Positions 3,923 to 49,700 of a DNA stretch of 64,000 nucleotides are shown piece after piece. The notes under the pieces are model-generated. The model was not told the DNA's origin. It saw nothing but the letters and a program-made list of their open reading frames with translations, and did no database searches. The stretch covers positions 1 to 64,000 of the IMG/VR virus record IMGVR_UViG_3300031977_001585. The stretch is one strand, 5' to 3'. The position numbers were made by a program, and so were the translations under genes. The stretch comes from a virus. Position 1 is the stretch's first letter, and every line of letters starts with the position of its first letter.

Positions 3923-4402
3923 TTAACTTTTTTGAGGCCAGACCACTTCCTGTACAGAAGTAACACCATCTAGGTGGTCGGTGATATCTCTTAACTGCTG
4001 CCGGTAGTTTCTCCATGACTGCAACTCTTGCTCAGATAGAGGAGCATCAAGTGCTTGAGTCCAGTCACAAGCAGTGAGTAATTGGTCTCGAATCATACGA
4101 ACATCTCTAACCAAATCTTCGTGGTTCCATGTCCAATCTAAAGACTCGAAGTTCCACGTTGCATGCTTGTTTGGTGGTAACCCTGTGAATTTAAAGGTTT
4201 TTGTTGATGCATCAAACCAGTGATAATCCATGAAGTAGGACAAGTCACTGCATCCTGCAGGAAGACTATCCTCATGAACATAGATAATACGTTGAGAACC
4301 ATCGGGAGTAAACCCCTCTGAATCAATCTTCACTTGCGGAAGAGAGATCCTTTCTAGTCTTCCTGTCTGCGTATTAGCATATACAACATAGCATAATTTC
4401 AT
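3923..4402 (-). CDS. Tail fibre assembly chaperone
   Basis: C-terminal RDQLLTACDWTQALDAPL...WRNYRQQLRDIT...VVWPQK motif typical of phage tail assembly chaperones; directly follows a fibre gene. Confidence 0.85.
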   Translation of the reverse strand: MKLCYVVYANTQTGRLERISLPQVKIDSEGFTPDGSQRIIYVHEDSLPAGCSDLSYFMDYHWFDASTKTFKFTGLPPNKHATWNFESLDWTWNHEDLVRDVRMIRDQLLTACDWTQALDAPLSEQELQSWRNYRQQLRDITDHLDGVTSVQEVVWPQKS

Positions 4403-39601: not shown

Positions 39602-39633
39602 GAAAAAGGGGACTCGATGTCCCCTTATTTTTT
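39601..39633. terminator. Bidirectional intrinsic terminator
   Basis: AAAAAGGGGAC-TCGAT-GTCCCCTTATTTTTT between convergent genes. Confidence 0.85.
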
Positions 39634-41925: not shown

Positions 41926-41955
41926 ATTATACCTCACTATGTATATGCCTGTCAA
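41926..41955 (-). promoter_or_regulatory. sigma70-like promoter
   Basis: TTGACA-18-TATAAT. Confidence 0.6.
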
Positions 41956-43471: not shown

Positions 43472-43520
43472 ATTATAGCAAATCTGGAACAAATGTCAAC
43501 ACTTTTTTAAAACTTTTTTA
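43472..43520 (-). promoter_or_regulatory. sigma70-like early promoter with A-tract UP element
   Basis: TTGACA-16-TATAAT preceded by AAAAAAGTTTTAAAAAAGTG. Confidence 0.8.
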
Positions 43521-43754
43521 TGGTAATTTCTCACAATAGATCGGATCTATTTTTCGTTCAACAATCTCCATCGCACATGGGTCACTGGCAAAAACCTTCC
43601 AAGTCCCATCGTACTGACTTGCAATCGTGATCTCGAACTCCTCTCCGTAAACGTCATACGCCTCAAACTTGAACTCGTAGAAGATGTTAGGTTCTCCTAA
43701 TCGTTCTACTAACCGTTCATAAGACGCATCAATATATCCCTGTAAACAACTCAT
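43518..43754 (-). CDS. Hypothetical protein
   Basis: 78 aa, LQGYI.ASY..LV..LGEP, GAGG SD. Confidence 0.7.
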   Translation of the reverse strand: MSCLQGYIDASYERLVERLGEPNIFYEFKFEAYDVYGEEFEITIASQYDGTWKVFASDPCAMEIVERKIDPIYCEKLP

Positions 43755-43761
43755 GACAACC

Positions 43762-43935
43762 TCACTGGGGAAAGGAGAAACAGTGAACCCCGAAGGTTCC
43801 TAGTCGAGAGACTCCTGATCTCCTCAAAACTGAGGGGAGAAACAGTGAACCGTAGTTCCTATTCCGACTCCAGATGTCCCTGGGGGACAAGCAGTGGACC
43901 GAAGTCCCTAGTCGTGAGTCCAGATCTCCCCAACT
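43762..43935 (-). ncRNA. Putative structured RNA with three tandem ~50-nt units
   Basis: Three copies of AUCWGGA...UAGGRAC-UNCG-GUYCACUGYUU with covarying stems, directly downstream of an early promoter. Confidence 0.65.
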
Positions 43936-43945
43936 CACAATACAC

Positions 43946-43973
43946 ATTGTACCTGTTTTGGAAACAAAGTCAA
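43946..43973 (-). promoter_or_regulatory. sigma70-like early promoter
   Basis: TTGACT-16-TACAAT with upstream A-tracts. Confidence 0.75.
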
Positions 43974-43996: not shown

Positions 43997-44614
43997 CTAT
44001 TTTGTTATATCAAAATTACTTTTTATAGGAGCACGTTCGACTGCCTTCAACCATGCCACGGGTTCTTTGATCACTGGTCGAGTGTACTTCAGTTTATGCT
44101 TTCGGAACGATTCCTTTAGACCCTTTGCTTCCGCCTGACCTAGGAACCGTGACACCAGTTTGAGCAGTGCCCAACGGAACCGATAGTCGTGACGATTGAA
44201 TCCTGCAGCATGTGCCAGTTCATGTAGGATCACGTACTTGTTGGTTCCCGACTGACTGTCGAGTTTGATCATATTACCATAGCAGAGACCTGCCCATGAC
44301 CTCGACTTGAATTCATAGAGATTGACTTTCTTGTATGCCTTGCGAACACGTCGCATGTCCATATCGTCGTTAGCAAACTGCTCCCACAGTTTAGACTTGA
44401 GCACTCGTTTCACAAACTTCTCGCAGTCTTTGAACTCCATCCTCTCTCGCACGTGGGGAAAGTTCTGCTCGAAGTCCCACTCTGCATTGTAGGTCTTTTG
44501 ACGTTGAGAGTCACGGGTTGGTAGTCGAGACTTGCGGCGGACATAGTCGTCGTAGTCCCATGCTTGGGTCTTGGTCAGACCCGCAGAAATTGCTTTGCGA
44601 TATGCTACTGTCAT
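43997..44614 (-). CDS. HEXXH (SprT-like) metallopeptidase domain protein
   Basis: VILHELAHA...H...F. Confidence 0.75.
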   Translation of the reverse strand: MTVAYRKAISAGLTKTQAWDYDDYVRRKSRLPTRDSQRQKTYNAEWDFEQNFPHVRERMEFKDCEKFVKRVLKSKLWEQFANDDMDMRRVRKAYKKVNLYEFKSRSWAGLCYGNMIKLDSQSGTNKYVILHELAHAAGFNRHDYRFRWALLKLVSRFLGQAEAKGLKESFRKHKLKYTRPVIKEPVAWLKAVERAPIKSNFDITK

Positions 44615-44946
44615 GCCTTCTTCTTTCTCACCGTCTTCTTAACCGGAGTCTTCTTGACAACTGCCTTCTTCTTGGCAACTGCTTTCTTCTTGGTAGGTGC
44701 CTTTCTTTTGGTGGGTGCCTTCTTCTTGGGGGGTTCCCAAGTCTTTGCGAGGAACTCCTCAACGGACAACCCACACTCACGAAGTGCTTTGTGAAATCTC
44801 TTTACGTCCGACATCTCCCATGAGTTGTTAATGAACGATCCAAAGTGGTCTGCTACTTTATCACCCAACTGAATGTTTTCTTCAGTCTCTTTATCGAAGA
44901 TGTAGCGCACCTTCTTGGTGAAGTTTAACTTGACGATTTTAGACAT
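44611..44946 (-). CDS. Hypothetical protein with Lys/Ala/Pro-rich histone-H1-like tail
   Basis: PPKKKAPTKRKAPTKKKAVAKKKAVVKKTPVKKTVRKKKA; AGGAG SD. Confidence 0.75.
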   Translation of the reverse strand: MSKIVKLNFTKKVRYIFDKETEENIQLGDKVADHFGSFINNSWEMSDVKRFHKALRECGLSVEEFLAKTWEPPKKKAPTKRKAPTKKKAVAKKKAVVKKTPVKKTVRKKKA

Positions 44947-45486: not shown

Positions 45487-46596
45487 TCACAATCCGACAT
45501 ATTCGTGCGAGAAGCAATCCCTAGCTGCGTGTCTCAGCATGAGATCCTCACTGAATCCTCCGAACCCGATCCCCTGCTCGATTCTCTTAATGTAGTCATT
45601 GCGACCACCGATCTTGTTCTTTGATGTTGCTCTCCACTTAGGGGATGCCTCTCGATACGCACCTAACTTAGGATGGGCAACCTTACTGAAGTATCTCTTG
45701 CCCTGAGACAGAAGGATCTCACCAATCGACTCTGACAGTCTCACTCCAACACCCAAACCTTGGAAGTCTGGAAGAACCACTGTCCGGTGCTCTCTCCAAG
45801 CACGTTTGAGTGACCCACTGGGCATCGAGATTACACTAGAAAATCCGATAGGTCTGCCGTTCCAGATTGCGATCCAGCAGTGTGCACCTGAATTAATGTC
45901 TCCCGTGAGATAGTGATGTTCACGGAACATTGACCACGCCTCGACCCCGCAAGGTAAGACTTCCACCTCGATGTCAGGTCGCCGAAGTAACCTCCGATCT
46001 TCACAGGTCTTCGTATCAGTGTCGAAGATCCAATCGGGTTCCAACCATTCGATGATGTCATAGTGACACGATGCGAATACAAGGTTCTTAAGTCCTTTCC
46101 GTTTTACGTATTTGTTGATCGCAACCGAACAGGATCGAGCAACGTTACGATCGACCACTGAGGTGTACTCATCGATCACTGCACCATCACCCAACTGACG
46201 TGCGAGGTCTGCTCGAAACTTCTCACCATTGGATAGCACGTGATAGGGTTTCAACCAAGACGGAATCGAGTTGAACCCAACTGCAGAGAGACGGTCTTCT
46301 GCATCTTCTGCATCCTCGAAGTGAGAGCAGACTGCCTTGTCCGGATTCCATTCCCCTGGGGACTCAGTTCCGAACTCACTCAACAGGATAGACTTACCCG
46401 TACCCGACGGTCCTACAATAAGACCAATGCCCCACTCATCTCCGATCGTTGATACACGATCTATGGTGGGGATCTCGATGGGTTCGAAGGTAGACACCCC
46501 CGTGAACTCGTAATCGAATGCTCGACTGATTTCGTCGGTGATGCTGTCTGTCTGTACTTGAGATGTTTTCATAATAAAAATAGGGGAGCAGTCCAC
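45487..46596 (-). CDS. ABC-type ATPase fused to GNAT (Mom-like) acetyltransferase
   Basis: Walker A GPSGTGKS, signature LSNGE, Walker B VIDEY, H-loop SCH; then F..HHYL and R.VVLPDFQGLGVG acetyl-CoA motif. Confidence 0.88.
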   Translation of the reverse strand: MDCSPIFIMKTSQVQTDSITDEISRAFDYEFTGVSTFEPIEIPTIDRVSTIGDEWGIGLIVGPSGTGKSILLSEFGTESPGEWNPDKAVCSHFEDAEDAEDRLSAVGFNSIPSWLKPYHVLSNGEKFRADLARQLGDGAVIDEYTSVVDRNVARSCSVAINKYVKRKGLKNLVFASCHYDIIEWLEPDWIFDTDTKTCEDRRLLRRPDIEVEVLPCGVEAWSMFREHHYLTGDINSGAHCWIAIWNGRPIGFSSVISMPSGSLKRAWREHRTVVLPDFQGLGVGVRLSESIGEILLSQGKRYFSKVAHPKLGAYREASPKWRATSKNKIGGRNDYIKRIEQGIGFGGFSEDLMLRHAARDCFSHEYVGL

Positions 46597-47103: not shown

Positions 47104-47207
47104 CGGGTTCTCCCTTTCAGTAGAGCATGAATTGCTTTTGCTTCCTTGCCTTTGATCCGACGATCCTTGTCGATCTGTTTCTGAACTGCTTGCTTGTTAT
47201 ACTTCAT
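47100..47207 (-). CDS. Small basic protein, 35 aa
   Basis: MKYNKQAVQKQIDKDRRIKGKEAKAIHALLKGRTR; ATGA overlaps at both ends. Confidence 0.65.
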   Translation of the reverse strand: MKYNKQAVQKQIDKDRRIKGKEAKAIHALLKGRTR

Positions 47208-47512
47208 TCTACCACAACCTCCACACGGTTGTCAAATTCACCAGCACCAGCAACCTCGAAGGGGACGTACATGATTCGACCCACACGTTGGATGTCGTGA
47301 TCGATAGAACCAGTCACAGAGTCCTTGACGAAGACGGTGTACCCGTTACACATGTAGACCTTGCGAGGGGCAGTGTAGTGGGGTTTTGCGTAGATCTCAC
47401 CCTTCTCAAGAACCTCACCAACCAAGTAAGAATCGGGACGATCGGGCATCGGTTCGAAGTCGTATGCACGGATGATGTCTCCGACGTTAGCAGTGTTTTC
47501 AAATTTCAACAT
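47204..47512 (-). CDS. Hypothetical protein
   Basis: 102 aa, VGD.IRAYDF.PM. Confidence 0.75.
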   Translation of the reverse strand: MLKFENTANVGDIIRAYDFEPMPDRPDSYLVGEVLEKGEIYAKPHYTAPRKVYMCNGYTVFVKDSVTGSIDHDIQRVGRIMYVPFEVAGAGEFDNRVEVVVE

Positions 47513-47841: not shown

Positions 47842-47897
47842 ATTATACTGATTTTGAGAACAGAGTCAACCCTTTTTGAAAACTTTTTTATGGTAAT
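47842..47897 (-). promoter_or_regulatory. sigma70-like early promoter with UP element
   Basis: TTGACT-16-TATAAT; upstream ATTACCATAAAAAAGTTTT identical to that at ~43509-43527. Confidence 0.8.
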
Positions 47898-49077: not shown

Positions 49078-49624
49078 TCTTTACCTCAAACCACTCTGGC
49101 ACTGGACGGTTAGTCCAAAGCATAGTAAACCGATCTTGCTTGGTCTGGTAGAATGCACGGTATGACTTGACAGGGTCAGACATTATGCACTCAGGGTTAG
49201 AACCCATTGCAAGTTTGAACGGGGTGCGTTCTACCTGGGGGATTGCCGCAGGTGGAGTTTGTAATATATCACGCAGTAGAGTGTCTGTCAAGTGCTTCTT
49301 ACCATATCGATAAGTATACTCATCACAGAGAGCAACAAAGTGCCGGTAGTGCCAGATGTAATTGCAGACGGATTCCATTGTCCAGACGGTACACGGGTGG
49401 CCGTGGTGGACTGCTTTGTAGAGTTTGTCCTCTAGGGTGGGATGATCATAATATTTGATCATGGTCTTGCCAGACTTGGATGGTTTGCGGTATACTTGAC
49501 CGTCTAGCATTCGATGTGCCGTAGACAGCATTTGTGCCGACTCGACCACCATCTTTGGTATGTGTTTATCGCATTGCTCTTGCGCAGCTATGACAGGATC
49601 TTCGTTCAGTATAAAAATATTCAT
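49058..49624 (-). CDS. Pyrimidine-dimer DNA glycosylase (DenV-like) family protein
   Basis: MNIF.L..DP..AA...CDKH..KM..ESAQMLSTAH, H..HPC..W, EY..RYGK.H. Confidence 0.8.
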   Translation of the reverse strand: MNIFILNEDPVIAAQEQCDKHIPKMVVESAQMLSTAHRMLDGQVYRKPSKSGKTMIKYYDHPTLEDKLYKAVHHGHPCTVWTMESVCNYIWHYRHFVALCDEYTYRYGKKHLTDTLLRDILQTPPAAIPQVERTPFKLAMGSNPECIMSDPVKSYRAFYQTKQDRFTMLWTNRPVPEWFEVKSERASA

Positions 49625-49651: not shown

Positions 49652-49700
49652 ATTGTAACAGAAGATTTTTAGTCTGTCAAGCCCCCAACTTGTATAAATA
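49652..49700. promoter_or_regulatory. Back-to-back early (minus) and late (plus) promoters
   Basis: TTGACA-17-TACAAT on minus 49652-49680; TATAAATA on plus 49693-49700. Confidence 0.8.

Follow-up and report, generated by a model that had tools for sequence, protein, structure and literature searches.

The promoter-proximal locus

The window, i.e. the whole 64,000-nt stretch analysed, is part of a 78.5-kb IMG/VR virus record with a completeness estimate of 46%. The GenBank record closest to it is that of Phage C48C1 (Kyanoviridae, 156 kb), whose gp32 is 85% identical. The region of interest is a typical T4-type early cluster, with at least seven strong, nearly identical host-type promoters, each before small ORFs without assigned function; by analogy with T4 biology these promoters are presumably early ones. 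Behind one of them lies an RNA element made of repeated units, with a gp32-type SSB encoded 3 kb downstream on the same strand. The features, with units delimited by alignment of shared blocks, are:

43946-43973, minus strand: sigma70-type promoter of near-consensus sequence, TTGACT (43973-43968), 16 nt, TACAAT (43951-43946)
43932-43945, minus strand: short 14-nt 5' leader (..GUGAGUU) between promoter and unit A
43883-43932, minus strand: unit A
43832-43882, minus strand: unit B
43770-43826, minus strand: unit C
43752-43769, minus strand: pyrimidine-rich spacer, SD GAGG (43760-43763) and AUG (43752-43754) of a 78-aa ORF (43518-43754)

Judging by its sequence, the promoter at 43946-43973 would drive transcription of the element. 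An earlier note on this DNA had proposed a promoter-proximal, non-coding structured RNA of repeated modules on the minus strand, and both the sequence and covariation in relatives confirm it. The alignment bears out the shared blocks AUCWGGA, UAGG and CACUGYUU in A, B and C, and the capped hairpins (UUCG, UACG and UUCGG) are there with the described alternation of GGAC/GUCC and GAAC/GUUC. The ten GGA motifs are real as well, 10 in 179 nt against 2.4 expected. The pattern TAGGRAC-N3-9-GTYCACTG occurs three times in the window and in none of 100 shuffles.

The surroundings hold several further items. On the minus strand, strong and near-identical sigma70-type promoters preceded by A-rich tracts recur at 43472-43499, 47842-47869, 41926-41955, 49652-49680, 49263-49291 and 47206-47235, and another is at 66890-66935 of G000; with the short leader (..GUUGAUGAGGAGAUGAUUAUG) and small ORF that come after each of them, they resemble modular early cassettes of the PeSL type in T4-type phages. 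A 369-aa protein (45487-46596, minus) joins an N-terminal P-loop ATPase part to a C-terminal GNAT acetyltransferase part (phrog_11143), a domain pairing reminiscent of RNA cytidine acetyltransferases such as TmcA. A 111-aa early protein (44611-44946, minus) has a Lys/Ala/Pro-rich, histone-H1-like C-terminal tail, and may be nucleic-acid binding; together with a 205-aa HExxH protein (WLM/SprT-like, weak Pfam hit) it is a usual neighbour just upstream of the motif. Directly behind the gp32 gene, a bidirectional intrinsic terminator (39606-39626) lies at the boundary between the minus-strand early/replication cluster and a plus-strand gene.

Distribution among relatives

Relatives were found by pattern scans and by a covariance model, R1, built from single units. 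The element is present in about 57 IMG/VR contigs, in further metagenome contigs and in one phage-like contig of a Porticoccaceae MAG. In every homologue the promoter is of the same type and the motif starts 13-14 nt downstream of its -10 box. No record has more than one locus, a 160-kb genome with a completeness estimate of 93% included. The distribution is sporadic among related phages. Its position is always within the early cluster, 2.7-5 kb upstream of gp32 and in the same orientation as that gene. The contig of the MAG (JAYQEC010000010.1, 35.8 kb) is phage-like, with a double motif, early genes and the promoter as elsewhere; it is either a host clue pointing to Porticoccaceae or a binning artefact.

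Beyond these contigs, searches returned no copies. A blastn search of 50,697 GenBank phage records did not find the element. The element is dispensable; the closest complete genome, C48C1, has no copy, and the two flanking genes are 77 nt apart there. Among the other contigs of 185,579 species-representative genomes, a strict pattern found no real copy, 20 of its 21 matches being due to chance; the covariance model found none in 151 Porticoccaceae genomes, where two weak hits in coding sequence are chance matches. A broad pattern over viral contigs gave mostly chance matches, from among which the covariance model added none.

The earlier note recognised no known family, and Rfam 15 agrees: the whole window gave no match at the gathering threshold, and the 401 nt around the motif, searched at E<=10, yielded just two hits, both no better than chance (a snoRNA on the opposite strand, and RgsA across the promoter). 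Two contigs examined likewise, L312 and L316, have no Rfam match. The element is a new RNA family, absent from Rfam, of the general kind 'conserved structured 5'-leader motif'. The main text of a survey of 10,006 candidate viral RNAs does not describe the motif, which may be among the unnamed candidates there (PMC10690425).

Fold of the single unit

The homologues with covariation that the earlier note had called for exist, as 14 distinct single-unit and 19 distinct double-unit variants. A single unit of about 55 nt is a three-way junction: P1, P1b, P2, the junction letters UAG, P3, and one A leading back to P1b. P1 has 7 bp (GGGGAGA/UCUCCCC) and is separated by a small internal loop from P1b, whose pairs are C-G, U.U, G-C and then G.A. 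P2 is in single units a short hairpin of 11 to 16 nt, variable in sequence and loop, and P3 has 4-5 bp with a stable UUCG-type cap.

Over the 14 single-unit variants, the 19 pairs of this model are 92.5% paired and seven of them change on both sides, a result that 0 of 500 shuffles reach. The test used a MAFFT alignment not fitted to the structure, and a smaller, 8-sequence version was also run. Examples of covariation are GGUGAGA/UCUCGCC, GAGAGG/CCUCUC and GGGGAGU/ACUCCCC in P1 (singles and doubles), GUC/GAC versus GCGA/UCGC in P2, and GAACC/GGUUC versus GGACU/AGUCC in P3. The hairpin loop occurs as UUCG, UACG, CUCGG and UCAG. G-U pairs are found in the transcribed sense only. Against this freedom of helices and caps, CUGG, UA, the closing G-C of P3 and ACUG are invariant across the variants, which suggests that the junction is what is recognised; the U.U of P1b is replaced once, by A-U in unit C of the window. 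The 196-nt leader folded as a single sequence is unexceptional (MFE z = -0.49), so that single-sequence MFE is uninformative and the support for the fold comes from relatives. The RNA element is real, conserved and precisely folded.

The GGA triplets, placed on this fold, give no support to the suggestion that the RNA is a CsrA sponge: they lie in P1, in the shared helix Px described below, in P3 or at junction borders and not in hairpin loops, and not all are conserved, one group of relatives (L015) having UAAGAAC in place of UAGGAAC.

A shared helix and a permuted inner unit

Most of the phages carrying the element have two units. A 37-pair model of the double unit is 90.1% paired over the 19 variants, with 13 pairs changing on both sides (0 of 500 shuffles). 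Its parts in the window, in transcript order, are:

43925-43931, minus strand: outer P1, 5' strand GGGGAGA, pairing with 43834-43840; covariation in singles and doubles
43920-43923, minus strand: CUGG of unit A, predicted to form outer P1b with ACUG at 43843-43846 (C-G, U.U, G-C, G.A); invariant in 19 of 19 doubles
43910-43917, minus strand: Px, unit A strand UCACGACU, pairing with 43863-43869 as the shared P2 helix; 19 variants
43896-43907, minus strand: P3 hairpin of unit A, GGAC UUCG GUCC; 100% paired, two covarying pairs
43870-43895, minus strand: capped P1 of the inner permuted unit, composed of ACUG, CUU, GUCCC-CCA-GGGAC, AU and CUGG; four to five pairs change on both sides
43863-43869, minus strand: Px, unit B strand AGUCGGA; covariation
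43859-43862, minus strand: junction letters AUAG before P3 of unit B
43847-43858, minus strand: P3 hairpin of unit B, GAAC UACG GUUC; 97% paired, two covarying pairs
43834-43846, minus strand: ACUG, UU and outer P1 3' strand UCUCCCC

The swapping of closing arms between A and B that the earlier note had seen is upheld: the 5' GGGGAGA of A complements the 3' UCUCCCC of B, and the 3' UGUCCC of A complements the 5' GGGACA of B, with five covarying pairs. The inner capped P1 occurs for instance as GUCUC/GAGAC, GCCC/GGGC and CGAUCC/GGAUCG.

The link between the two halves is Px, an 8-bp helix that joins a stretch of unit A resembling a weak P2 hairpin to a purine-rich stretch of unit B. Over the 19 variants it is 93.8% paired, with four pairs changed on both sides (UCUCAACU/AGUUGAGA, UCCUGAUU/AAUCAGGA and UCCCAACU/AGUUGGGA are examples). 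A local P2 hairpin in unit A (GUC-UCYC-GAC) was considered and is superseded by the long-range Px, which covaries. With Px, all pairing in the double unit is nested, and Px serves as P2 of either core: outer P1/P1b, Px and P3 of B make up the outer core, and Px, P3 of A and the loop-closed P1/P1b the inner one. The inner unit is thus a circular permutation of the single unit, inserted in P2 of the outer unit. Monomer plus P2-fused permuted dimer is an uncommon natural architecture.

All A units have 9 nt between CUGG and UAG, and all B units 8-9 nt. Because the length of Px is fixed while its sequence covaries, and P2 of single units varies, the two cores also keep a conserved position relative to each other. 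If two non-canonical pairs at one end are included in the count, about one helical turn would separate the cores; the model predicts two identical junction cores at the ends of a constant-length helix, related by a pseudo-two-fold axis. RNAalifold on the doubles favours local CUGGU/ACUAG and UAG/CUG pairings, all of which involve invariant letters and so lie outside the reach of covariation; the P1b register of CUGG/ACUG is likewise beyond proof by covariation and is a predicted pairing.

The leader GUGAGU of the window is complementary to ACUCAC in unit A (43919-43914; MFE fold), and L084 has GAGAGU/ACUCUC, a compensatory change (two variants). If formed, this hairpin would enclose the 5' strand of P1 and compete with Px, perhaps as an intermediate of folding, perhaps as a switch.

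In a catalytic reading the units are candidates for a new class of small self-cleaving ribozyme, present in one to three leader copies; a three-way junction of about 55 nt, with some 15 invariant junction nucleotides and capped helices that vary freely, would suit such a class, as would the sporadic distribution among related phages. The natural circular permutation of the inner unit and the tandem copies fit too, both being common among small ribozymes. For permutations of small ribozymes, compare PMC10085705. Neither hammerhead, twister, twister-sister, pistol, hatchet nor HDV models match, however, and up to three cuts inside a 5' UTR would have no obvious use, so that we regard catalysis, on these sequence features, as quite unlikely.

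The third unit

Three tandem units had been described, and three are present in the window, but they are peculiar to its phage; relatives have one or two. An outer GGGGA/UCCCC helix around all three is possible by sequence, but what relatives conserve is the pairing of GGGGAGA with the 3' end of B. Unit C is a recent insertion and a free-standing single unit, comprising P1 (GA)GGAGA/UCUCC(UU), P1b CAG/CUG, P2 GUC-UCUC-GAC, UAG, and P3 GAACC-UUCGG-GGUUC. The single-unit model fits it, and it is the best match in the genome to R1 (73 bits).

In relatives about 95% identical (contigs, three RNA libraries), 43765-43832, i.e. unit C, is replaced by 9 nt. In the RNA-library relatives and in the metagenome contig L312, the end of B is followed by a 9-12-nt U-rich spacer and then by the same SD and 78-aa gene. 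The RNA-library contigs (X15-X18) bear on the absence of unit C, and not on transcription, starts, ends or cuts. A contig break at 43945/43946 was considered as an RNA end and set aside as an assembly effect, since it coincides with the repeated promoter sequence. The MFE fold of the window (43760-43832, minus) allows a pairing that encloses unit C, between the SD UGAGG and the CCUCA directly behind unit B, so that the insertion of unit C may have altered SD access in the strain of the window.

The start of unit C is a second copy of the SD letters GAGG. Ordinary early leaders of the same phage have an SD, GAGGAGAU, at the exact position of the 5' strand of the motif's P1, GGGGAGAU. It looks as if the module was inserted at, and moved between, promoter/SD cassettes.

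Selection on the fold

Traces of this kind would be expected of a selfish or neutral insertion, a functionless structured cassette spread by recombination between repeated promoter/SD sequences: GGGGAGAU occupies the exact place of GAGGAGAU, unit C was inserted at a duplicated GAGG, and neighbours are shuffled as around PeSL cassettes (PMC2839356, PMC4122927). The PeSLs of T4-type phages are terminator stem-loops that directly precede a conserved early promoter (PMC2839356, PMC4122927). The present locus shares with PeSL regions the repeated conserved early promoters, the hyperplastic setting and the shuffled small ORFs (PMC2839356, PMC4122927), and cassette shuffling of this kind is probably why the neighbours of the motif differ. 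The element itself is different: it is a junction RNA of complex fold, lies downstream of its promoter and occurs once per genome. That single occurrence per genome, together with strong purifying selection and compensatory changes across at least 33 distinct variants, makes a functionless cassette highly improbable.

Between the window and relatives, A+B are 84-88% identical, third codon positions of the adjacent ORF 54-57% and the promoter region 73-74%. Purifying selection acts on the fold. The earlier note had named, as the case that would speak against an RNA, conservation of a 61-aa ORF (43762-43947), whose frame is open in the window. This ORF is not conserved. Its ATG is in the -10 box, upstream of any transcript that would start from the promoter at 43946-43973; motif lengths differ by non-multiples of three, relatives carry stops in the frame, and substitutions are compensatory at the RNA level. 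We give almost no credence to the ORF as the functional product.

Downstream context

The first downstream ORF belongs to at least eight different families, all without assigned function, most often to a 78-101-aa family and otherwise to a 184-aa, a 176-aa, a 143-161-aa HExxH family or others. Since the first downstream gene varies, the element goes with the promoter and not with a gene. Neighbour proteins searched with PHROG, Pfam and PADLOC include nothing that suggests a partner: no RNA-binding signal and no toxin-like gene. The spacer between motif and SD is C/U-rich, 8-19 nt long in homologues, with a U-run before the SD. P1 followed by this U-run was considered as an intrinsic terminator and rejected, as the U-run starts 0-1 nt after P1 in a few phages and 3-6 nt after it in most. 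On the motif strand there is no intrinsic terminator between the motif and the terminator behind gp32.

Three loci have a second conserved structured module between motif and SD (L316:1-140, minus; L281 about 4180-4370, minus; L041 about 4016-4110, plus), closed by a GGGG...CCCC helix with a U6-7 run behind it, and without an Rfam match. Those of L316 and L281 have a common core, UUUCGAARAUUCCGACUGAYAGGUA, with covarying flanks.

The lack of intrinsic terminators bears on the comparison with HK022 put, an RNA of lambdoid phages that comprises two stem-loops and a triplex and whose function depends on downstream terminators (PMC9378689). By that model the nascent RNA would bind the elongating host RNA polymerase and suppress pausing or termination through a 3-5 kb early operon ending at gene 32. 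Like putL, the element is promoter-proximal, a folded early-transcript phage RNA directly behind a host-type promoter and tied to the promoter and not to a gene (PMC9378689); it is moreover always co-oriented with gp32, 2.7-5 kb upstream. It has no sequence similarity to put, a two-stem V-shaped RNA with no junction, and no intrinsic terminators lie on its strand before the one behind gp32. Further promoters lie between motif and gp32, C48C1 has the same operon without the motif, and variable unit number is left unexplained. From the sequence comparison, polymerase binding of this type appears very unlikely.

In a riboswitch reading, each junction would be a candidate aptamer for a small molecule or ion, the ligand stabilising P1 and so freeing the SD from the 3' strand of P1, UCUCC, or from the pyrimidine tail. 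The motif is placed accordingly, in the 5' UTR 8-19 nt before the SD, and has the invariant junction and covarying helices of a conserved candidate aptamer. Both the 3' strand of P1 and the tail complement the SD, which is often predicted to be paired with its pyrimidine-rich neighbours, and the 5' hairpin that competes with P1/Px shows compensatory change in the window and L084, one lineage. Single and tandem forms are known among riboswitches as well: the glycine riboswitch occurs as single and tandem aptamers, and the ydaO (c-di-AMP) riboswitch has two similar junctions in one chain, with a pseudo-two-fold axis. The phage element resembles these two in its three-way-junction units with conserved cores, its 5' UTR location and its one- and two-unit forms. 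It differs in having no sequence or covariance-model similarity to them, no consistent gene association and no clear expression platform, and in its shared P2 helix and permuted inner unit in place of the linker-joined units of tandem riboswitches.

Several features argue against a classical riboswitch: (i) the capped P1 of the inner unit cannot switch; as it is closed by a loop, P1 need not be the switching helix. (ii) P1 is stable (7 bp, G+C-rich) and predicted to form without ligand in most leaders. (iii) Downstream genes are unrelated, with no consistent pathway association. (iv) There is no terminator, the spacer varies in length and content, and L041, L281 and L316 have the extra module before the SD. 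(v) No Rfam riboswitch model matches. We therefore consider a riboswitch doubtful, if conceivable.

The fold could instead serve passively, a stable structure at the 5' end shielding the early message from 5'-end-dependent RNases, or marking a processing site in the U-rich spacer, with no specific ligand. It begins a few nt from the presumed 5' end, is G+C-rich with UNCG caps, and is followed by a U-rich single-stranded tract; in L021, L067 and L004, P1 is lengthened where GUGAG of the leader pairs with CUCAC. Shielding or processing leaves unexplained the invariant junction letters, the conserved U.U and the constant-length shared helix, as well as the restriction to one of at least seven similar promoters, and on this account it seems unlikely.

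A putative binding platform

We favour a different explanation, in which the element forms the 5' end of one early transcript in uncultured marine T4-like phages, a clade related to Kyanoviridae, and is a putative platform to which a factor binds, probably a dimeric protein; we put the probability of this full explanation, binding role included, at roughly 0.35. The conserved junction core would be a specific binding site. The fixed two-fold geometry, together with unit numbers of one, two or three, would allow the factor, most simply a protein, to bind as a dimer or with avidity, and binding would either control the early message (its stability or translation) or titrate the factor. A binding platform fits the conserved two-core geometry, unit numbers that change from one close strain to another, the presence of just one copy, placed after a strong promoter, and the dispensability of the element. 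The element may also be only the untranslated front of a message, there being no terminator between the fold and the next ORF. A small-molecule ligand or catalysis explains the invariant junction equally well.

Of the earlier note's proposals on function, that of a multivalent binding RNA survives as the most economical reading of the architecture, but its specific candidates (CsrA, antitoxin, L11) have no support. For the L10/L11-site mimic, the only features in common are three-way-junction topology and the closing CAGG/CACUG letters; the GTPase-associated centre of 23S rRNA (L11 site) is a three-way junction with short joining strands, and the closing C-G, A-U, G-C, G.A of unit C is alike. 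No Rfam rRNA or L10/L11-leader model matches at E<=10, however. The hairpin loops that form the rRNA site are absent, the element having no counterparts to the two large loops that build the tertiary fold of the rRNA, and P2 of the element is dispensable or variable.

Titration would be the role of a decoy. The RNA would in that case be a separate product of the first minutes of infection, a putative decoy for a dimeric host regulator, a defence protein or a signalling nucleotide, its valency tuned in an arms race. Phage RNA decoys that copy a host repeat include pseudo-ToxI, a type III antitoxin mimic, and RNA anti-CRISPRs, which are solitary repeat units. The present element resembles them as an accessory set of promoter-driven phage RNA units whose copy number changes between close strains. 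It differs from pseudo-ToxI in that its units are 50-55-nt junctions, with A and B non-identical and nested, and in that no host counterpart was found. A type III antitoxin would be a series of near-identical tandem repeats of about 34-45 nt with a terminator and the gene of an endoRNase toxin behind them, or a copy of such a host locus; here we find no plain direct repeats, no terminator or toxin-like gene next to them, and no host copy in the species-representative genomes or the 151 Porticoccaceae genomes, which speaks against the proposed antitoxin mimic. Around the motif, no CRISPR-DR or ToxI model matches at E<=10. Nine letters, GUUCACUGC, are common to the element and the type I-F CRISPR repeat; the hairpin after GUUCACUGC is different, and in the element it covaries freely in sequence and loop. 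Such a decoy, as read from sequence, strikes us as improbable.

Significance

Structured phage RNAs are poorly charted, and few have known jobs. The element described here is 55-160 nt long, well defined by covariation and abundant in estuarine and marine viromes; being short, well defined and fixed at the 5' end of an early transcript, it lends itself to an easy bench test. Its junction is found both as a free unit and as a helix-sharing permuted pair, which argues that the junction core, and not the helix ends, carries the function. A ligand sensor or ribozyme would constitute a new class. If the decoy reading is true, the P2-fused permuted dimer would exemplify, in nature, an RNA 'homodimer in one chain'. 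If the partner is a host protein or signalling molecule, the element would add an RNA to the tools of early phage take-over and counter-defence.
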